From sequence record PZ445554.1: DNA of 64,000 bases; one strand, written 5' to 3'. Both the position numbers and the translations under genes were made by a program. The notes below the pieces were generated by a model. That model had not been told where the DNA came from, did no database searches, and saw only the letters and a program-made list of their open reading frames with translations. Each line of letters opens with the position of its first letter. The stretch's first letter is position 1. Shown here one piece after another: positions 4,149 through 22,356 of the stretch. Source of the stretch: a phage.

Positions 4149-5349
4149 ATTTTGTAATAATGTCAAACTGTTCTTTAAAGCAGAAGCTTGAATCTTGATG
4201 CTGATACAAAAATTCATATGCTTTTTCTCGCTCACGGTCATAAAGAGCTCGGTCAGATGACAGTTCTTTAATACGTTCAAATGTTGATTCCATGTCATTT
4301 TCATCAAACCAAATGATACCGCTATCATGCGAGGTCAAAGGAGTATTATCAACACGGAATTTTAAATTTTCGCCAGTAGATTTCCAAAATACCGGAATTG
4401 TTCCACATGCACCAAGCTCGAGATGAGTATATTCTAAAGAACGTTGTAGATATTTTTTATCCAACTTACTCAACTGATAACCAAAACCGGATTTACTCAT
4501 GCGTTCAAGCATTTCGCTATTTACATAACGGTCAAGAATTTGCGTTGGCAAATTAGGAGCAATTTTAATTTGGTCTACTTGATGAAGACGATAATACTCG
4601 TATGGAATTCCTTTTTCTTTAATAGGAATGAACGCTGGAGAACGTTCCAGACCTTCCATAATAGTACTTAGTCCTGCAGGTTTAAGATGTTTTTCGTGAA
4701 AATCAAACATCTGATAAAAACCTTTCCATGTAGTCGTACGACCAATCCAACGATTGATATTCATGTTAATTTCAGAAACATCTTTCCAGTAGGTTGACCG
4801 AACCTTCGCAATATCCATAGGAGGCTGAAAGTTATATACTGTCGGCGCTTCTTCAATATCATCAAATAAAGAAACTGTTTCAGGATACCACTCTTTCATC
4901 AGAACTTTATTAAAATCACCATTATCAGAATGACTAAAAATAACATCAGCTCGACGAACAGTTTCTTCTAATCCCAAATTTCGGCGCAAAGAAAGAGAAG
5001 AGTGGTCATGTTGATAAACTACAACACGAACCGAAGGTTTAATGTTATCAATAATTTTTTTATAGTTATTAATAGTGTCTTCTTCAACTGAAGTAGCAGG
5101 AACTGAATTGATAATTAGAATATCACAATCATTTACCAGCTTAAGTGTTTTATCGTATTCTTTTGCCAATAAAACCGGAATTGAAAATGATTTATAATCA
5201 TGTGCACAGTTACGAGTAAATGATTTATCTTTAGCATAAACCAAAGTTACTTCATGACCATTTTTAATAAACCAATCACGTTGCTCAAGAGAAAATTTAG
5301 TTACACCACAACCTTCAAGACCCCGAGCCATAAAAATACATACTTTCAT
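4147..5349 (-). CDS. a-gt: DNA alpha-glucosyltransferase (hydroxymethylcytosine glucosylation)
   Basis: 400 aa; begins MKVCIFMARGLEGCGVTKFSLEQRDWFIKNGHEVTLVYAKDKSF, recognised as the T4 alpha-gt sequence; same length as T4 enzyme. Confidence 0.95.
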   Translation of the reverse strand: MKVCIFMARGLEGCGVTKFSLEQRDWFIKNGHEVTLVYAKDKSFTRNCAHDYKSFSIPVLLAKEYDKTLKLVNDCDILIINSVPATSVEEDTINNYKKIIDNIKPSVRVVVYQHDHSSLSLRRNLGLEETVRRADVIFSHSDNGDFNKVLMKEWYPETVSLFDDIEEAPTVYNFQPPMDIAKVRSTYWKDVSEINMNINRWIGRTTTWKGFYQMFDFHEKHLKPAGLSTIMEGLERSPAFIPIKEKGIPYEYYRLHQVDQIKIAPNLPTQILDRYVNSEMLERMSKSGFGYQLSKLDKKYLQRSLEYTHLELGACGTIPVFWKSTGENLKFRVDNTPLTSHDSGIIWFDENDMESTFERIKELSSDRALYDREREKAYEFLYQHQDSSFCFKEQFDIITK

Positions 5350-5400
5350 TTAATATCCTCTTTGTTTTGGTTTATTTTACCAAAAATTTATAAAGCAATA

Positions 5401-5418
5401 TAGGAGCCGAAGCTCCTA
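5401..5418 (-). terminator. rho-independent terminator
   Basis: TAGGAGC-TTCG-GCTCCTA hairpin overlapping stop of the upstream small ORF, followed by T-rich run on minus strand. Confidence 0.4.
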
Positions 5419-5589
5419 TCCACATAATACGCCATACAGAGGCTCGTTAGAACTTTTAAATTTTATGCGCTTATATGTTATAGTTCCTTCTGCTTTAGCT
5501 TTATCATGAGACTCTTTAAAGCGTCTCATCATTTCCTCTTTAGAGGAACGAATTTTATTATAATCTATTTCAGAAGTCTGGGTGTTCAT
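5416..5589 (-). CDS. putative small protein (57 aa)
   Basis: Hand-translated MNTQTSEIDYNKIRSSKEEMMRRFKESHDKAKAEG...; start 3 nt after stop of upstream ORF; not in ORF track (<60 aa). Confidence 0.3.
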   Translation of the reverse strand: MNTQTSEIDYNKIRSSKEEMMRRFKESHDKAKAEGTITYKRIKFKSSNEPLYGVLCG

Positions 5590-5592
5590 CTT

Positions 5593-5799
5593 TCATAACT
5601 GCCACCATTTTTTAACTTGATAAGAATCAACCCACACTTTCATATTAGGGTCTGCTCTTACAATAGGAGGATTAACTTCTTTAATTGAACTATCATGGTA
5701 TTCTTTTTCAGAAATTTTCACACAAAGATGACCATTCAAAGATTCAGTAAATCCTGCATTAATTTTAAGACGCTTGAATTTTACGTGTGTAAGCATCAA
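5593..5799 (-). CDS. hypothetical protein
   Basis: 68-aa ORF in the a-gt/55 intergenic cluster of small early genes. Confidence 0.4.
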   Translation of the reverse strand: MMLTHVKFKRLKINAGFTESLNGHLCVKISEKEYHDSSIKEVNPPIVRADPNMKVWVDSYQVKKWWQL

Positions 5800-6082
5800 T
5801 CATATCCTCAATCTGCGATCTAGTAGTCTTCCAAAGAATACTAATGAGTTCATCGTTATATGGCTGTTTTAGAATATCCCGACTTTTCTTGATAGCATAT
5901 TCGTATTGAGCAAAATTATTATTTTCAGCTGCAATCTGAGCGTGCTTATAAAGACGATTCAGTTCGCGTTTGTTTTTATGCAATAACTTATTTGCTTTTC
6001 TTTCTGCTTCAAGACGGTTCTTTTCTTCAATAGAAGAAATAAGCTTTTCCACTTCATCATTAATTTCGGGTTTATCAGTCAT
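5765..6082 (-). CDS. hypothetical protein
   Basis: 105-aa ORF, charged/helical; tightly packed with neighbours. Confidence 0.5.
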   Translation of the reverse strand: MTDKPEINDEVEKLISSIEEKNRLEAERKANKLLHKNKRELNRLYKHAQIAAENNNFAQYEYAIKKSRDILKQPYNDELISILWKTTRSQIEDMIDAYTRKIQAS

Positions 6083-14554: not shown

Positions 14555-14840
14555 ATCGGTGTTTACAATGGCGACATTTATAACGAAGATTATTAGTCTG
14601 CCAATGGACTAATTGCACCTGTTCAGTTCCACATTCAGGGCAATTAGGAACGTTTTTAGAAGCACGTTCGCGGCGTTCAACCATGACCATTACAGAATCC
14701 CAATTAATAGGGCTGCTATAATCATCACAACCATGAATCTTTCCACGCATTTCCAGATCGTCTTCTTCACCAGCCATAATAATTTTAATTAGACTAGAAT
14801 TACTTGAAGCTGCAATGTCTTCTAATAGACGCTTTTTCAT
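14526..14840 (-). CDS. hypothetical zinc-ribbon protein
   Basis: 104 aa; CPECG...CRHCKH four-cysteine motif near C-terminus. Confidence 0.5.
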
Positions 14841-15766
14841 TTCAATACCTCAATAGCATTACGTAAACCATTTGCTTTTGCATTAAGAGCTTTTAACAAT
14901 TTGGTGTGTTCTTCAATTTGGGCTTCAACTTCAATCAAACGAGCATTGAGATATTCACGTTCTTCGCTCAAGTTATCAACCTTTTCTACTTTAGGTTCTT
15001 TTACAACTGGCTTATACGTATTAGGGTTCTTCAGTTTAATTAGAATGCGTGAACTGTATAACATTGAACCATTATCTTCGGTTTCATCATGCATTTCTAC
15101 TACGTCCATGATTTTTAACATCATGCGAAGTTTATAAGACAACGAACGAATAGTTTTGTTGTGCTTATTAATTTCTCTAGCTGTCATGGTGCCGAGATTA
15201 CGTGAGTAATAATAAGGAACCTGGATATTAATTAATACTGATGAACCACCTGGCTTGTGTGTTACTTCATCAGCAATAACCCAGTCCTTAACATGAACTG
15301 TATTTGTACGGTCATCGCCCATGGTAAACAGTTTGCGAGCATGCTTAAAAAGCATATTCACTTGAGTATTGAATTGACAAGCAAATTTATCAGCAAATTT
15401 AGTTTCAGGAATGGTAGATAACCAATCAGCCAAATGGGTCTTTTTAACATCGTTAATAATAGTAAATTCAACCAAATCGGTTATAGATGTCGCAGATTTA
15501 ATGAAGCTCGGCTTCATAAAGTTTTTAATGTTATCGCGAGCTACAGTAGAAGATAACATACGAGAACGTTTAAACCATTCAAGCAAATTGCCTAACGAAT
15601 GAGAATAAGCGTTTTGAGTATCTTTACAGATATGATTTTCCTGGCCAACATATTGAAGGAAATCACGAAGAATATTATTGATTACTGCTCTGTGCCCGAT
15701 CTGATAATTACGGTGTTTAGTAATAAGACTGTCAAAATAATCAATATAATGTTTACGAGTTTTCAT
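14837..15766 (-). CDS. hypothetical protein, paralogue family member A (C-terminal coiled-coil)
   Basis: 309 aa; shares FxxxRKLF and KxMDVV motifs with three following ORFs; C-terminal heptad-rich tail. Confidence 0.6.
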   Translation of the reverse strand: MKTRKHYIDYFDSLITKHRNYQIGHRAVINNILRDFLQYVGQENHICKDTQNAYSHSLGNLLEWFKRSRMLSSTVARDNIKNFMKPSFIKSATSITDLVEFTIINDVKKTHLADWLSTIPETKFADKFACQFNTQVNMLFKHARKLFTMGDDRTNTVHVKDWVIADEVTHKPGGSSVLINIQVPYYYSRNLGTMTAREINKHNKTIRSLSYKLRMMLKIMDVVEMHDETEDNGSMLYSSRILIKLKNPNTYKPVVKEPKVEKVDNLSEEREYLNARLIEVEAQIEEHTKLLKALNAKANGLRNAIEVLK

Positions 15767-15818
15767 GTTCTTCTCACTTGGTTAATGGTTTATACTCCGA
15801 GCCATCCTTGGCTTTAAA

Positions 15819-16871
15819 TTACTTAATTAACTGTAAAGCTTGTTCAAGACGATCCAGGCGATTAACAGATTCTTCCCAAATCCTTTTAGCCTGCTCATAT
15901 TCTTTCTGTGCTTTATTAGAAATTTCTAGAACTTCTTTATAAGCTTTTTCTAGTGCAATAACTTCTGGACGAATTTCTATCGGTTCAGGTGAATCGTCAA
16001 GACATTCCATTAGTTCCTCAAGGGTAGTTTCTTCTTTAGGAGTATTCACAATTTCATCACATTTTTGTTGGTAAATTTCTTTATCAGTCGGTGAGTACGC
16101 ACACTTTACTTCACGAAGACTAACTACAATTTTATATCCTTCCCAACCGCATATATTCTTAAAAGGATAAGTATGAATATTTTCTACTGTTTCCATACAA
16201 AGTAATGCAGTCTCTAACTGACGAGTTATATCACTAGCAATTGAGAAAAATTTATTAATGTTCTTTTGATTAGCTTCTGGTGTAAAAAATTCATAATTCA
16301 CAAAAATAGCTACTTTATTTTTATCAAGTTCATATTCTTTTATGATAATCATATCAGAAGCCAAAGGATGAATTTGACGATAATCGCCATAGCATAATTT
16401 AGAAGCTGATTTCAAAATTTGCTTCTTGAAAAGTCTAAAATTACTAACCCAACGACGAGTAAAAATATTCTCAGGGTCTTCTTTAATATTAAGATGATAA
16501 GAATTAACATCACCGAACCAATTGTATCCTACTACATCTTTAGTTCGTTTAATTTCTTTCCCAAATTTACTAAGAATATCTTGATTAACTAAATATGAAA
16601 GAAGACGAGACCCTTTAAAGGTTTCCTTAATATCATCTTTATCTGCACGACTAGAAATTTTATGAACTTCATGAATAAATTTGCTGGAAGAAACAATACT
16701 TGCATCAGTATTATTGAGCCATTGATTGATAATGGAAATAACGCTATTCTGACTAGACATAGGTTTAACTTTATCATCAATAACGCTATTGAATGATTTG
16801 ATATATTCGTTACGAGTCATATTAATCTCCTCAGTAGAAAGTAAGAACATTATACCACATCCTTGTGGCAA
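15819..16871 (-). CDS. hypothetical protein, paralogue family member B
   Basis: 350 aa (probable start MTRNEYIK); WVSNFRLFKKQILKSASKL and LCMETVENIH align with member C; C-terminal coiled-coil. Confidence 0.6.
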   Translation of the reverse strand: MPQGCGIMFLLSTEEINMTRNEYIKSFNSVIDDKVKPMSSQNSVISIINQWLNNTDASIVSSSKFIHEVHKISSRADKDDIKETFKGSRLLSYLVNQDILSKFGKEIKRTKDVVGYNWFGDVNSYHLNIKEDPENIFTRRWVSNFRLFKKQILKSASKLCYGDYRQIHPLASDMIIIKEYELDKNKVAIFVNYEFFTPEANQKNINKFFSIASDITRQLETALLCMETVENIHTYPFKNICGWEGYKIVVSLREVKCAYSPTDKEIYQQKCDEIVNTPKEETTLEELMECLDDSPEPIEIRPEVIALEKAYKEVLEISNKAQKEYEQAKRIWEESVNRLDRLEQALQLIK

Positions 16872-16877
16872 AGTAAA

Positions 16878-17897
16878 CTAGTTCAGTGCATTTAGTGCAT
16901 TATTCAGTTTAGAACGTTGCTTTGCCAGATTTTGAACCCTTGACTGAGCTTGTTCTAACACCTTTTCAGCTTCTAGCACTTCATTGGTCGCTTTAACGAG
17001 TTCATCATCTACTGCCTTGATAGACTTCTCAATCGCATCCGCGTGCCATTTTTCAACGGGTTTAAGACTCGGATTTTCAACAGGAAGAAAATTCACTTTA
17101 TTGAATTTCCATGCATCTTTATTACCTGAACTATACATCCAAAATTTAGGATCGTTTGATGAGTAATTAGATAAATTTAAGTTATCTTGCACTTCTTGCT
17201 TTTTCTCTTGCGGGACTTCGTCCTTTCTCAAAAAATCGTATTTAAATGAAACGACCATATCAAGTTCATATGTTGTTGTATGTTCCCAATTTCGCTCAAA
17301 ACGAGGTAAAATCTTAGAATGAACAGCGGCAACAACATCCATATACTTAAATGCTTCTGTCAACTGCGATTTAAGGCATTCACAAATTGAAAGAGAATTT
17401 TTTGTATTAGGTTTAAAGCTAATTCGCGCAGTTCTATTATTTTCTTTTAATGGTCTTACTTCCATCTGAAGAGTATAACCATCAAATTTCAGGTTCTTTA
17501 AGTTAATGTCAGAACCTTTTAATCGACTAGCCGTCGACAAAATTTGCTTTAATTGTTTACGGAATAGAGCAATAAATCTCCATTCAATACGATAATGATT
17601 TGGATTGAAAAATCCAGATGATAAATCGACCTTACTCTGACCAACACCTTGAACAAATAGAGGATTTTTATAATCAATAGTTTTACAGAAATCGGTGAGC
17701 TGCTCACGAGCAGTCATTTGTGTAATATACCCCGCTTTACTAAAATGACGTAATAATTCACTGCTATTTAGATATTTAAAGTGAATAGCACGATTAACTT
17801 TATCAGGGTCTAAATTATTTTCACACAAAAATGTCATAACATTACGAGTATCGCTGCCAGTACGAACCATATCTTCAATTTGAGAACGAGTTTTCAT
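16878..17897 (-). CDS. hypothetical protein, paralogue family member C
   Basis: 339 aa; EWRFIALFRKQLKQILSTASRL and FKYMDVVAAVH align with members A/B; C-terminal coiled-coil. Confidence 0.6.
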   Translation of the reverse strand: MKTRSQIEDMVRTGSDTRNVMTFLCENNLDPDKVNRAIHFKYLNSSELLRHFSKAGYITQMTAREQLTDFCKTIDYKNPLFVQGVGQSKVDLSSGFFNPNHYRIEWRFIALFRKQLKQILSTASRLKGSDINLKNLKFDGYTLQMEVRPLKENNRTARISFKPNTKNSLSICECLKSQLTEAFKYMDVVAAVHSKILPRFERNWEHTTTYELDMVVSFKYDFLRKDEVPQEKKQEVQDNLNLSNYSSNDPKFWMYSSGNKDAWKFNKVNFLPVENPSLKPVEKWHADAIEKSIKAVDDELVKATNEVLEAEKVLEQAQSRVQNLAKQRSKLNNALNALN

Positions 17898-17905
17898 GGT
17901 GTTCC

Positions 17906-18808
17906 TTAAGATTTAAGTAAATCAACAATTTTAATTAACTTTTCACGCTCAGATTTAGCTTTACTACTCAGTCCAGATAGTCTGAAAATTTCATCATCAT
18001 ATTGTTGAATAGAAATATTCAGCTCTTCAATCTGTTTATTAAAATAATCAATTTGTTCAGAATGTTTTTCGTTACTACGAAATGGTACAGGTTTTGTAGG
18101 CAATTTAGTTGAATTGGATTCATCCGGGCGATAAATTAAAATACAACTTGAACCAATCGGACATTTAGCACCAGATGAATATTCTAACGTTCCAGCTTCT
18201 TTTAAAACTTCAAAAGCTAAACAGAGATGATGCCCCATATTGACATAATCTGTAGAGCGAGCTCTGATATAATAATCATCGCCGCGAATACTAAATTTAA
18301 AGCATTTAAGGTCTTCTGTATTATTGGTCTTAAAAATCATTTGTTTATCTAGACCTTTAGCTAATCGAGCGCCTAATGCTAATAATCGTCGTTGATTTTC
18401 CCACAAATCCGCAATCATTTGATCGAATGATAATTTCGGCATTAGTCGACCATAAAGGTCATATCCTTTATTATAATTGCGAAGGATTTCACTCGCATTA
18501 ATACGAGACAACGCTCCAATTTTATTAAGGGCTTTCATGATGCGATTAGATAAACCCATTCCAGACCCGTTTGTTCGTTGTAAATGTTTATCTAATCCAA
18601 ACCCAATATCAACTTTAAATTTATCTAAAATTTCAGCATGAACATCTCTGTCAATAACATTCAAATCCAAAGTTGGGTTAAATCTATGAAAAAATTTATC
18701 TGGCTCTCCACGACGAAGTACAGTCCATTCATTTAATTTTTTATTAACTAAAGATTTAATTACTGCGTTGACATTATTAATTACTACTGACATATTTTCC
18801 TCACTCAA
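17906..18808 (-). CDS. hypothetical protein, probable paralogue family member D
   Basis: 300 aa; similar size and C-terminal coiled-coil; weaker similarity. Confidence 0.55.
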   Translation of the reverse strand: MSEENMSVVINNVNAVIKSLVNKKLNEWTVLRRGEPDKFFHRFNPTLDLNVIDRDVHAEILDKFKVDIGFGLDKHLQRTNGSGMGLSNRIMKALNKIGALSRINASEILRNYNKGYDLYGRLMPKLSFDQMIADLWENQRRLLALGARLAKGLDKQMIFKTNNTEDLKCFKFSIRGDDYYIRARSTDYVNMGHHLCLAFEVLKEAGTLEYSSGAKCPIGSSCILIYRPDESNSTKLPTKPVPFRSNEKHSEQIDYFNKQIEELNISIQQYDDEIFRLSGLSSKAKSEREKLIKIVDLLKS

Positions 18809-19209
18809 TTTTCAATTTTACTAAATACACAGAATATGATGGAAAAGACTATATAAGCACCGCATACAGATTGAACTAATACCATTCCAAAGAACCAAAC
18901 AATATTATCAAACAGTGTCTGTTTTACGTCGAAAGGACGTAAACTTACAGTAATATTATCACCTTTTTCTATTGAAGAATACATCTCTGGTGAAATATAT
19001 TCGCTAAATCTATAACCGTCTTTGAGTTCATATACGGCAATAAACGATAAACTAGACCCCTTTCCTTGAGTTCCTGTAAGGGTATTAACTACAGTAACAT
19101 CATAATCTTTATAATGCATATAATCATTAATTGCGTAATAACCATATGCAACTACTACACATAAACAGCATATCAATAAATTCAATCTTTTAATTATCAA
19201 CTGTTTCAT
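18805..19209 (-). CDS. membrane protein
   Basis: 134 aa; hydrophobic N-terminal (LLICCLCVVVAYGYYAI) and C-terminal (IVWFFGMVLVQSVCGAYIVFSIIFCVF) segments. Confidence 0.55.
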   Translation of the reverse strand: MKQLIIKRLNLLICCLCVVVAYGYYAINDYMHYKDYDVTVVNTLTGTQGKGSSLSFIAVYELKDGYRFSEYISPEMYSSIEKGDNITVSLRPFDVKQTLFDNIVWFFGMVLVQSVCGAYIVFSIIFCVFSKIEN

Positions 19210-19267: not shown

Positions 19268-19795
19268 TTATGCGAGTACCGTCTTTAACCGTTCTTCAAA
19301 CTTCCGAAGAGTATTTTGGCGTTCAGCTCTTTGCTTTTTGTAAGTTTCAATACGCTCTGAAATGAGATTGTATCGTTCATTTACTGATTCTTTCATAAAA
19401 TCAGGAATTTCACGAGAAGCTTTAATCTCGTCAAATTTATCAATAACAGCTTGCTCTTCAGCAATTAAGTTATCATACATCAAAATATCTTTCTTGATGA
19501 ACTCAATATCTTCTTGAGTTACACGAGATAATTTAGATGCTTTATCCTTTTTGTACTGTTCGTTAGTATCACGAGACCAGTGTAATGTACGATTTTTATT
19601 CGTATTCTTGTAAATTTCTACAATACCAATCTCATCGATAATAACGATCCAATTCCAACGGGATTTGTAAATTTGTCCTCCATCAACCGTGATTTCACCT
19701 CCGATTGAGATGTCATTAAAGAACTTGCTTTGTGCTTCAGATTTAAATTTACCATCGTTGTAATTTACCAGGTTGAAAATATCTTTAGCGTTCAT
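19268..19795 (-). CDS. hypothetical protein
   Basis: 175 aa; GGAGGAAC RBS; directly downstream of early promoter. Confidence 0.55.
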   Translation of the reverse strand: MNAKDIFNLVNYNDGKFKSEAQSKFFNDISIGGEITVDGGQIYKSRWNWIVIIDEIGIVEIYKNTNKNRTLHWSRDTNEQYKKDKASKLSRVTQEDIEFIKKDILMYDNLIAEEQAVIDKFDEIKASREIPDFMKESVNERYNLISERIETYKKQRAERQNTLRKFEERLKTVLA

Positions 19796-20259: not shown

Positions 20260-21240
20260 TTATTTCAGAAGAGTAACCTCAGCAATTTCTTCCCAACCGT
20301 TTTTGTCGGTCATAATAAAGTCAGCAAGATAAAGTGCAGTACGCAGTGAAACATTGCGTAAACGATTAACATTGACTTTCATCCATGATAATGCTTTATA
20401 AGTTTCTTCATCAGAAAGACCGCGCTTTTGCATCATGTCAGTTGAAAGAATAACATCTTCAACCCTGACCATAATTTCTTCATTAGTGTGAACACCCAAA
20501 TCCAAATAAACTGAGCGGGACACTAATGCTTGTAAATGTGGAGCAAGTTTAGTACCACGGTCTAATTCGCGGTCAATATCAACGTTTGTGATAAAAACAA
20601 TTGTTCCTTTAAATTCAAACTCACGGTCAATGCCTTTTTCTTCTAAGTAAGAAGATGCAGTACTCCAGCAGACTTTACGGGTCTCTCCAGTGTCCAGAGC
20701 AGCTTTCAGAAGATTAAGAATGTCCATATCAGAGAAAACATCCACATCATCAATCAAAAGGACAGAATTCTCTTCACGATTATTCCAAAGCTGCTCATAA
20801 AGACCGATACCAGAGATTTTACCATTAATGCTTTTATACTCAATGTATCCAATATCATTTGCTTTATTTAAAGCTTTATCTAAAGAATACGTTTTACCAA
20901 TACCCGCCGCACCAGAGATAATTAATGAACGAATGTTTCCGTTAATAATACCATTCGTCATCATTCCCATAACATTAAATCTTTTATTAATGCGGGTTTT
21001 CATATCTTCATATGATTCTTTAACTTCTTCAACTTTTACGCCATCATATGAAATGTCTGATTTGTAAACCCAAACACCGCGACGTTTACCGTCAATTTCA
21101 ACAAAAACTTTACCATCTCCTTGTGCATCTACCGGAGCATTATCTGGGAACCATTCGCCTAAGAGCTCAAAAGTTCCAGAGATTTCTTTACCGAAGTAGA
21201 TACCCTTATTGATAGTTACAGTTTTCATTTTATTCTCCAA
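20260..21240 (-). CDS. AAA+ family ATPase
   Basis: 326 aa; Walker A GAAGIGKT, Walker B VLLIDDVD, sensor-like TIVFITN; ~90-aa N-terminal beta-rich domain. Confidence 0.7.
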   Translation of the reverse strand: MENKMKTVTINKGIYFGKEISGTFELLGEWFPDNAPVDAQGDGKVFVEIDGKRRGVWVYKSDISYDGVKVEEVKESYEDMKTRINKRFNVMGMMTNGIINGNIRSLIISGAAGIGKTYSLDKALNKANDIGYIEYKSINGKISGIGLYEQLWNNREENSVLLIDDVDVFSDMDILNLLKAALDTGETRKVCWSTASSYLEEKGIDREFEFKGTIVFITNVDIDRELDRGTKLAPHLQALVSRSVYLDLGVHTNEEIMVRVEDVILSTDMMQKRGLSDEETYKALSWMKVNVNRLRNVSLRTALYLADFIMTDKNGWEEIAEVTLLK

Positions 21241-21262
21241 ATCCGTATCAGTTGATAGTTGT

Positions 21263-21292
21263 ATAGTACCATAAAGCTTTATGCTTGTAAAC
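21263..21292 (-). promoter_or_regulatory. T4-type early promoter
   Basis: GTTTAC-N18-TACTAT (minus) followed by conserved leader ACAACTATCAACTG and GGAG RBS of the ATPase gene. Confidence 0.5.
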
Positions 21293-21322
21293 CGTTTTGT
21301 GAAAAATTTTTGAAATAAAAAA

Positions 21323-21340
21323 GGGAGCCCGAAGGCTCCC
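21323..21340 (-). terminator. rho-independent terminator
   Basis: GGGAGCC-TTCG-GGCTCCC hairpin immediately after the nucleotidyltransferase stop, then TTTTTT. Confidence 0.55.
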
Positions 21341-21342
21341 TA

Positions 21343-22356
21343 TCATTTATAATAACTTCGGTGGTTTTCAAGATAGACCTTCTCAAGGAAGTCATCCCAG
21401 AAACCCATGTCTACTTTTTGCTGCATACCGTTCTTAGAAGCTTCAGTAGATGCTGCTTCTACTTGATCGACCACATCTTCCAAAAACTCTTGAACTGTTT
21501 TAAATGGATGCTTACCCAACTTCACGTCGAGAATAAATGGAGCATCTTGGAGTGGATAAACCAAGTCACCGGTTTTGTAAATTTCCAATAGTTGAAGTCC
21601 ACCACGACAAGCATGGCTCAGAGCTTTCCAGTCAATACCTTCATTGGCTTCGGCCTTACGAGCACGTTCACCATATTCAGCATCTAATTTGTTCAGTGAC
21701 TGCTTAAGCTCAATAAGAGAAAGAGTTGTCTGATATTTACGACCCAACACAGTGTAGAACGTTTGTGGGCCTGTTTTCTCATGATTATAGAACACCCATT
21801 CACAGAATTCGTTTTCTGGAAGACGATGCTTAATATCTTCAACTTTAGTACGACGCTGCTTAATGGAACCGTCTTCTTGGTAATCAACCCATTGCTCAGG
21901 GATTTGATTAACTACTTTCAATACATCACGTAATGCAGCCAAACGAGAACCCTTGACACCGTATTTAGAAGCTTGCTTACGGACATATCCTAAATAGGAT
22001 TTCATGTTAGTCGTATAAAAACGAGAACGGTTGTCTTGAATAAACTTCCACACGTCAGGCAAATCAGATTTAACCACTAGCTCAGGTGGAGTGTGAAGCA
22101 TATCCAATGCTACAGTTTCACCATCTGCTGCTAATTTAAAGAAATATTTAAGACTGTATAGTTCATGGTCAATATCATCTTTAGTGTTTTTAGATGATGT
22201 GTTGTTAGTGTTTTTACTCATGTGCTCTTTGACATTTCCGATAAGAATATCGCGAGCAGGAGGAACAAAGATTTCTTTAAAATCTATATCAGATTCTGGG
22301 GTAGAAGTTCCATAAAGATGACTACCAAAATAGCTTTTCATTACTGTTTTCATCAT
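21343..22356 (-). CDS. nucleotidyltransferase-fold protein (Pol-beta superfamily)
   Basis: 337 aa; N-terminal GSHLYGTSTPESDIDF fits the GS-x(9-13)-DxD NTase motif; C-terminal ~200 aa of unknown fold. Confidence 0.65.
   Translation of the reverse strand: MMKTVMKSYFGSHLYGTSTPESDIDFKEIFVPPARDILIGNVKEHMSKNTNNTSSKNTKDDIDHELYSLKYFFKLAADGETVALDMLHTPPELVVKSDLPDVWKFIQDNRSRFYTTNMKSYLGYVRKQASKYGVKGSRLAALRDVLKVVNQIPEQWVDYQEDGSIKQRRTKVEDIKHRLPENEFCEWVFYNHEKTGPQTFYTVLGRKYQTTLSLIELKQSLNKLDAEYGERARKAEANEGIDWKALSHACRGGLQLLEIYKTGDLVYPLQDAPFILDVKLGKHPFKTVQEFLEDVVDQVEAASTEASKNGMQQKVDMGFWDDFLEKVYLENHRSYYK

Follow-up and report, generated by a model that had tools for sequence, protein, structure and literature searches.

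The nrdC.3-nrdC.6 gene block

The stretch of phage DNA analyzed here (64,000 nucleotides of sequence record PZ445554.1, referred to below as the window) contains four consecutive genes, all on the minus strand, listed as open reading frames (ORFs) at 14837-15766, 15819-16871, 16878-17897, and 17906-18808. Sequence comparison identifies this block as the nrdC.3, nrdC.4, nrdC.5, and nrdC.6 genes of a Tequatrovirus other than T4 itself, and the subject of the present analysis is the relationship of the four proteins to one another and their possible role in countering host defense. Matches to the 3.97-kb segment occur in 657 phage records with DNA identities of 80 to 97%, nearly all of them from T4-like phages of Escherichia, Shigella, Yersinia, and Salmonella; Tequatrovirus genomes match it at 92 to 97%, and annotated records name the genes NrdC.3, NrdC.4, NrdC.5, and NrdC.6. 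The gene order in the window is that of T4, nearby ORFs of 104 and 85 amino acids (aa) match phrog_1474 and phrog_2052, which are the families of T4 nrdC.2 and nrdC.1, and endonuclease VII and the NrdC glutaredoxin were also recognized in the window by inspection. An earlier note on this DNA, made from the letters of the sequence, had described a tandem array of four similar genes here and had suggested that they be compared with nrdC.x genes from T4 and its relatives. The four minus-strand genes are present where that note had placed them, with two starts that are probably overextended (Table 1), and the comparison with T4 is trivial because the four are themselves those genes.

The listed 350-aa ORF of nrdC.4, which begins at TTG 16871, probably extends too far upstream, and ATG 16820 was used instead. 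TTG 16871 falls within a promoter-like element, GAGGAG followed by ATG 16820 lies downstream, and the phrog_1435 match begins at residue 18 of the long ORF. The promoter-like element (16877-16849) was the top score of the scan, with 10/12 matches. For nrdC.6, the most likely start is ATG 18793, which is preceded by a GAGGA Shine-Dalgarno sequence and gives a protein of 295 aa rather than the 300 aa listed. The T4 annotation and the boundaries of the PHROG matches are consistent with both revised starts.

Table 1. Genes, promoter-like site, and predicted C-terminal tails of the nrdC.3-nrdC.6 block (positions in the window)
Feature	Positions	Strand	Description
nrdC.3	14837..15766	minus	309 aa; phrog_1435, E value 1e-116; paralog 1; same Pfam/PHROG family as nrdC.4
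nrdC.4	15819..16820	minus	333 aa from ATG 16820; phrog_1435, E value 1e-166
nrdC.5	16878..17897	minus	339 aa; Pfam DUF7235/PF23882, E value 2e-123; T4 NrdC.5 ortholog, 92.9% identity
nrdC.6	17906..18793	minus	295 aa from ATG 18793; phrog_2257, E value 1e-151; most diverged paralog
Sigma-70/T4-early-type promoter-like site	16849..16877	minus	aGTTTACt-17-TATAAT with TG, before nrdC.4; consensus match only
NrdC.3 predicted coiled-coil tail, last 49 aa	14840..14986	minus	gap-free tail alignment; heptad shuffle 0/2000
NrdC.4 predicted helical/coiled-coil tail, last 49 aa	15822..15968	minus	gap-free tail alignment; heptad shuffle 138/2000
NrdC.5 predicted coiled-coil tail, residues 281-339	16881..17057	minus	AlphaFold single helix 281-338; heptad shuffle 0/2000
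NrdC.6 predicted coiled-coil tail, residues 242-295	17909..18070	minus	AlphaFold helices 242-271 and 277-294; heptad shuffle 4/2000

Homology of the four proteins

The databases distribute these proteins, or close relatives of them, over three PHROG families (1435, 2351, and 2257) and three Pfam families (PF26897, PF23882, and PF26899), with nrdC.3 grouped with nrdC.4 in both schemes. The nrdC.5 product matches PF23882 over its full length (residues 1-339) with 412 bits against a gathering cutoff of 30. No match to the PF23882 model was obtained for nrdC.3, nrdC.4, or nrdC.6, which places these three genes outside DUF7235 at the family level. Relatives of nrdC.4 carry PF26897 (Phage_T4_Y04OP), and those of nrdC.6 carry PF26899 (Phage_T4_Y05B).

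In BLASTP comparisons among the four proteins and seven neighbors, the only significant pair was NrdC.3 and NrdC.4, with 24% identity over 270 aa (E value, 5e-7). Profiles of the four families, built from other genera, were more sensitive when aligned with hhalign, and the NrdC.3 and NrdC.4 families aligned over 214 columns with an E value of 2e-13, NrdC.4 and NrdC.5 over 238 columns, or almost the full length, with an E value of 2e-5, and NrdC.3 and NrdC.5 over 128 columns with an E value of 1e-4. The NrdC.6 profile gave E values of 0.008 to 0.03 against the other three, in a register that was constant throughout, and because these direct comparisons are too weak alone, bridge sequences were used to link NrdC.6 to the rest. 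A HMMER search with the NrdC.3/NrdC.4/NrdC.5 profile against 1.84 billion representative proteins retrieved only 23 clusters, some of which match the hidden Markov models (HMMs) of both the NrdC.5 and NrdC.6 families, such as P0263 (7e-17 with the NrdC.6 HMM and 9e-13 with the NrdC.5 HMM) and P0259. The single-copy proteins of phages IME523 and PM2 likewise match both HMMs. A search by word index returned nearly only close relatives and was used for the alignments, not for distant relatives; P0263 as a query for related loci yielded one weak locus.

The clusters that match both HMMs correspond to single-copy proteins found at the syntenic position in Kanagawavirus IME523, Jiaodavirus JD18, Mosugukvirus PM2, and LC371242, and a bridge profile was built from these. 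In hhalign, this profile matched NrdC.3 at 95.7% (E value, 9.5e-9), NrdC.4 at 97.2% (3.9e-11), NrdC.5 at 99.3% (3.4e-20), and NrdC.6 at 98.0% (1.8e-13), over alignments of 145 to 244 columns that include the globular core. The bridge HMM matched every member of the arrays and no other ORF among the 467 in the window and ten further loci. Since the bridge profile matches all four families and the bridge HMM matches array members only, nrdC.3 to nrdC.6 are homologous by these profile comparisons and form one superfamily of deeply diverged tandem paralogs. The pairwise and profile alignments that the earlier note had called for thus agree with its reading of the genes as tandem paralogs, although pairwise BLASTP reveals only the NrdC.3/NrdC.4 relationship and significance for all four is reached through the bridge profile.

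The alternative that four unrelated neighbors merely resemble each other through low-complexity or coiled-coil composition would be in keeping with the mostly nonsignificant BLASTP results and with the E values of the direct NrdC.6 profile comparisons. However, the bridge alignments extend through the globular core, the conserved motifs sit in core helices, the order of secondary-structure elements is identical in the two predicted models described below, and the bridge HMM passes over all other ORFs, including nrdC.8, whose product also ends in a coiled coil. An artifact of composition is effectively refuted by these comparisons, and we give it almost no weight.

The genes themselves and the anti-Dsr1 activity of T4 nrdC.5 are already known. 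What appears to be new here, on the sequence comparisons made, is that the three database families constitute one superfamily with a common tail; no such statement was found in the searchable literature, outside which most subscription journals lie. The databases keep the families separate, whereas here PF26897 and PF26899 are joined with DUF7235 by bridge profiles, predicted structure, and the shared tail.

Predicted structures and the C-terminal tail

Structures of NrdC.5 and NrdC.6 were predicted by AlphaFold2 with family alignments (mean pLDDT, 73.5 and 77.8, respectively), and the architecture of NrdC.3 and NrdC.4 was taken from their alignment to NrdC.5. The two models have the same order of elements, namely, two helix pairs separated by a small sheet, a beta-beta-alpha-beta-beta unit, a linker, and a terminal helix, and in both, a variable N-terminal helical part precedes the common core. 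Two motifs that the earlier note had picked out are genuine conserved columns in core helices: F...RK.L..IL..AS.L corresponds to the second helix pair (NrdC.5 residues 104-126), and K.MDVV...H corresponds to the end of the NrdC.5 helix 168-184 where it passes into a strand. The low-confidence linker varies in length, from 58 residues in NrdC.5 to 15 in NrdC.6 and nearly zero in NrdC.3. In Foldseek searches of viral models, NrdC.5 and NrdC.6 share as targets A0A2S1GM98 of the Erwinia phage Cronus and A0A2Z4QAR2 of the Klebsiella phage Mineola, which are uncharacterized proteins of about 300 to 370 aa from distant T4-like phages, and each query further matched proteins of Acinetobacter, Pectobacterium, Serratia, Citrobacter, Yersinia, and Aeromonas phages. 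The predicted structural equivalence of NrdC.5 and NrdC.6 rests on element order, alignment register, and these common targets rather than on a direct superposition.

Another idea is that the core domain imitates a structural protein of the phage, with an alpha/beta fold like that of tail-terminator or tail-completion proteins, and would serve as a decoy that occupies the sensor of a virion-sensing defense system. A precedent would be DSAD1, which vies with the tail tube protein for DSR2. The scores of the fold comparisons, however, lie within the range of generic two-layer alpha/beta sandwiches, and no T4 virion protein is among the matches, which makes a structural decoy very unlikely.

Each of the four proteins is predicted to end in a helical tail (Table 1). 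In the NrdC.5 model, the terminal helix is single and 58 residues long and follows a disordered linker (residues 222-279) with pLDDT values below 50. Heptad periodicity was assessed by counting, among 2,000 shuffles of each tail, those that reached the observed enrichment of hydrophobic residues at the a and d positions. The result is strong for NrdC.3, NrdC.5, and NrdC.6 and marginal for NrdC.4 because Tyr and Trp at its a and d positions were not counted. Among about 70 family members, the final 48 residues could be aligned with zero gaps in the full-length members, the gaps being confined to two truncated or frameshifted sequences, and all tails finish within one residue of the C terminus with a pattern like (Q/E)R.KL..A(L/I)..LK. 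An HMM of the tail matched family members only, with E values of 1e-8 to 1e-20. The coiled-coil tails proposed in the earlier note are therefore genuine as sequence features and are themselves homologous.

A related 173-aa protein (P0257) carries an unrelated N-terminal part of 120 residues on a nearly identical nrdC.5 tail (equivalent to window positions 16881-17040), which suggests that the coiled-coil tail is a portable module. Partial matches to this N-terminal part occur in two Tequatrovirus records (Ec_YwIITB1 and the LYE-01 region). The product of nrdC.8 (175 aa; 19268-19795) has a heptad-like terminal helix (..ETYKKQRAERQNTLRKFEERLKTVLA) that resembles the family tail; it matched neither the tail HMM nor the bridge HMM and was rejected as a family member.

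Conserved residues and annotation

The earlier note had recognized no catalytic motif, and the superfamily alignment agrees, with no catalytic motif among the conserved columns: the columns shared by four or more of the five groups consist only of Ala, Leu, Phe, Gly, and Ile and the terminal Lys. Searches of Pfam, NCBIfam, and PADLOC gave no significant domain beyond the domains of unknown function (DUFs) of the proteins themselves. Subthreshold matches to PHL, DUF3905, integrase SAM-like, BrxC, tyrosine recombinase, and CofH models were rejected as chance or compositional, and matches to Protein Data Bank (PDB) sequences (designed helical repeats and uS9m) were rejected as compositional. The sole PADLOC match joins the NrdC.4 tail with a coiled-coil stretch of BrxC (12 bits; E value, 0.007) and does not place the protein among known defense components.

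In GenBank records that match window positions 14837-19209, nrdC.3 to nrdC.7 are often labeled "thioredoxin," and nrdC.7 is sometimes labeled "Mur ligase domain-containing protein." A thioredoxin or glutaredoxin identity was rejected for nrdC.3 to nrdC.6: no such Pfam match was found at E values up to 1, none of the four proteins contains a CxxC motif, and the predicted folds of NrdC.5 and NrdC.6 are not thioredoxin-like. By these criteria of sequence and model, the label is a carryover from the gene name nrdC and a widespread misannotation.

Distribution, copy number, and divergence

In the searches made, including that of the representative proteins, the family is confined to T4-like phages. 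Within the nrdC-mobD region of Tevenvirinae, its members are syntenic, flanked by nrdC.2 on one side and nrdC.7/nrdC.8 on the other, as seen in the window, T4, Dhakavirus, Gaprivervirus, Mosigvirus, Kanagawavirus, Jiaodavirus, Mosugukvirus, and LC371242. Kanagawavirus, Jiaodavirus, Mosugukvirus, and LC371242 have one copy; Dhakavirus and Gaprivervirus have three (nrdC.4, nrdC.5, and nrdC.6 types), as does Mosigvirus PhAPEC2 (nrdC.3, nrdC.5-like, and nrdC.6 types); T4 and the window have four; and Tequatrovirus LYE-01 has three, without nrdC.4. On this comparison of loci, the array is a lineage-specific tandem expansion, from a single copy in several genera to three or four in the genera that infect Escherichia coli.

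The four genes differ in how far they have diverged from T4. Amino acid identity to T4 is 97% for nrdC.6, 93% for nrdC.5, 92% for nrdC.4, and only 62% for nrdC.3, with ratios of nonsynonymous to synonymous divergence (dN/dS) of 0.09, 0.26, 0.18, and 0.28, respectively, the synonymous divergence (dS) of nrdC.3 being above 1. Conserved neighbors (nrdC.1, nrdC, nrdC.9 to nrdC.11, and gp49) are 98 to 100% identical to those of T4 with dN/dS ratios of 0.00 to 0.05; the ratios of nrdC.2, nrdC.7, and nrdC.8 (0.18 to 0.36) also lie above those of the conserved neighbors. The differences of nrdC.4 and nrdC.5 from T4 are concentrated in the first 60 to 90 residues, and the tail is the best-conserved part in comparisons between genera. 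As a whole, nrdC.3 is 78% identical to the copy of Mosigvirus PhAPEC2, and it is a mosaic: its first 60 and last 60 residues are 80 to 100% identical to T4, whereas its center is 90 to 93% identical to Mosigvirus PhAPEC2 and only 40 to 57% identical to T4. This pattern implies an exchange of nrdC.3 sequence between genera. The description of the genes as diversifying in the earlier note stands in part; allele replacement in nrdC.3 is the clearest sign of it, and the dN/dS ratios of nrdC.3 to nrdC.5 exceed those of the conserved neighbors, but all four ratios remain below 1.

Several variants of the array were observed. One 299-aa protein (P0056, from a 167-kb metagenomic/isolate contig) joins the central part of nrdC.5 in frame with the C-terminal half of nrdC.3 (junction, ..AWKFNKVN followed directly by MLFKHARKLF), apparently the product of a deletion that removed nrdC.4 by recombination between paralogs in the region equivalent to window positions 14837-17500. 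In Shigella phage Sf25, nrdC.6 (P0139) encodes 378 aa because about 83 residues, from the end of the core through the linker into the beginning of the tail, are duplicated in tandem within the protein; P0139 is also the top Foldseek match. In Escherichia virus TH15 (an UNVERIFIED record; 5016-5865), nrdC.6 is split into ORFs of 137 and 63 aa, which reflects either a pseudogene or a sequencing error. Dhakavirus and Gaprivervirus arrays have an extra ORF of 56 to 71 aa between the nrdC.6-like and nrdC.5-like genes that partly overlaps the start of the latter (loci L002, L004, L005, and L006) and is absent from Tequatrovirus.

In Kanagawavirus- and Mosugukvirus-type phages, the single-copy member is directly preceded upstream by a conserved ORF of some 258 aa (L008, 4250-5020; L010, 4593-5378; L015, 7122-7898); this ORF had no HMM match and was rejected as a family member. 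nrdC.10 and nrdC.11 (20260-22356), described in the literature and in records as an AAA-ATPase-like protein and a nucleotidyltransferase (RlaP/COG3541), are 98.5 to 99.4% identical to those of T4 (dN/dS, 0.05) and adjoin the array in all of the genera examined, with the exception of Gaprivervirus VR26, in which no nrdC.10 is annotated.

Putative role in counteracting host defense

T4 nrdC.5 has been described as an uncharacterized early gene whose expression in trans allows a T4 deletion clone to plate again on cells with Dsr1, a SIR2-domain defense protein (Srikant, Guegler & Laub 2022, PMC9391042). Near neighbors of the array also act on host defense, with nrdC.1 inhibiting Septu (bioRxiv 10.1101/2025.11.20.689424) and gp49.2 inhibiting OLD (PMC13096335), and T4 deleted for the nrdC.1-6 block is unharmed on a laboratory host (PMC9825161). 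The window ortholog of T4 NrdC.5 is 93% identical to it, matches PF23882 over the full length, and has the same position and neighbors; its N-terminal 60 residues, in contrast, are only 80 to 87% identical, and the anti-Dsr1 activity is known only for the T4 allele. The suggestion in the earlier note that an array of this kind in an accessory region belongs to an anti-defense gene family finds support in these reports, which concern nrdC.5 in T4 only, the inhibitory neighbors, and a dispensable block.

The reading that we favor, and consider probable though far from assured, is that NrdC.3 to NrdC.6 are a phage-restricted superfamily expansion of nonenzymatic inhibitors of host antiphage immunity that oligomerize through their coiled coils. 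All four genes belong to the early-gene region, expression at early times has been reported for T4 nrdC.5, and the early-type promoter-like site before nrdC.4 fits this reading. Heptad periodicity and a long lone helix in the monomer model suggest that the C-terminal coiled coil would form dimers or higher oligomers, while the variable N-terminal part and core surface would bind and neutralize a host defense protein stoichiometrically. The window NrdC.5 would then neutralize Dsr1 as the T4 allele does. On the analogy of DSAD1 and DSR2, NrdC.5 may act by binding directly to Dsr1; no published mechanism for NrdC.5 was found in the literature searched. DSAD1 is likewise a phage protein that silences a defense-associated sirtuin NADase, leaving the NAD+ products undestroyed (PMC10973363, PMC10981675, PMC11087589). 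Relatedness to DSAD1 was rejected, with no similarity in sequence or fold to DSAD1 as solved with DSR2. NrdC.3, NrdC.4, and NrdC.6 may each be aimed at a different defense system or at a different allele. The history of the locus fits such an arms race, with one to four copies across genera and three or four in Tequatrovirus, a mosaic nrdC.3, fusion and duplication variants, and raised dN/dS ratios of nrdC.3 to nrdC.5. In addition, the array resembles other anti-defense islands of T-even phages (dmd-tifA-adfA, 49.2 against OLD, and nrdC.1 against Septu), which are clusters of small to medium accessory genes of the early class that laboratory hosts do not require, neutralize one defense system per gene, and undergo amplification and deletion. 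The genes of those islands are unrelated, whereas here four adjacent paralogs share a predicted oligomerization tail.

Several points weigh against this interpretation. The experimental support is limited to nrdC.5 and is genetic, by complementation in trans; the literature searched gave no function for nrdC.3 or nrdC.6 and only a trivial mention of nrdC.4. Oligomerization through the coiled coil is deduced from the heptad pattern and a monomer model. The NrdC.6 model matches a representative of the NrdC.5 family in Foldseek only at an E value of 0.34, and nrdC.6 is as conserved relative to T4 as many ordinary genes are. The dN/dS ratios, at 0.09 to 0.28, are all below 1.

The paralogs might instead coassemble through the shared coiled coil into one hetero-oligomer with a single job, whether the neutralization of Dsr1 or another early function. 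The constancy of tail register and terminal motif across paralogs and genera, the strong conservation of the tail between genera, and the retention in E. coli-infecting genera of at least one nrdC.5-like gene, one nrdC.6-like gene, and one of nrdC.3 and nrdC.4 would all suit such a complex. However, when a plasmid supplied NrdC.5 alone, Dsr1 cells could again be infected (how much the phage had lost around nrdC.5 was not found in the main text of that report), several genera have a single copy only, LYE-01 lacks nrdC.4, and the heptad core residues differ among the paralogs; we regard a single hetero-oligomer as rather unlikely. In a further alternative, to which we assign the same low likelihood as to coassembly, the paralogs other than nrdC.5 have no part in immunity and are early proteins of host takeover or regulation, such as modulators of host transcription or metabolism. 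These two alternatives and the structural decoy have less support than does a family of immunity inhibitors.

A more specific form of the immunity-inhibitor reading would treat the array as a modular platform driven by recombination, in which the coiled coil is a handle for oligomerization, possibly into mixed, multispecific particles, and the N-terminal part and core are a warhead swapped between phages and genera, with nrdC.3, nrdC.4, and nrdC.6 each silencing a distinct system. It is suggested by the mosaic nrdC.3, the nrdC.5-nrdC.3 fusion, and the 173-aa protein with a foreign N-terminal domain on the nrdC.5 tail, and we offer it as a speculative proposal that is a little more plausible than coassembly.

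Implications

T4 is the best-studied phage, and yet nrdC.3, nrdC.4, and nrdC.6 are without an assigned function, and for NrdC.5 a phenotype but no mechanism is on record. Membership in one superfamily with nrdC.5 makes nrdC.3, nrdC.4, and nrdC.6 direct candidates for further anti-defense proteins. If the proposed division of roles is true, the regions of NrdC.5 to mutate would be the tail for assembly and the N-terminal part and core for specificity. The expansion from one to three or four copies, together with the swapping of alleles between genera, offers a compact illustration of how the accessory genomes of phages track the defense repertoires of their hosts, which bears on the prediction of host range for T4-like phages used in therapy.

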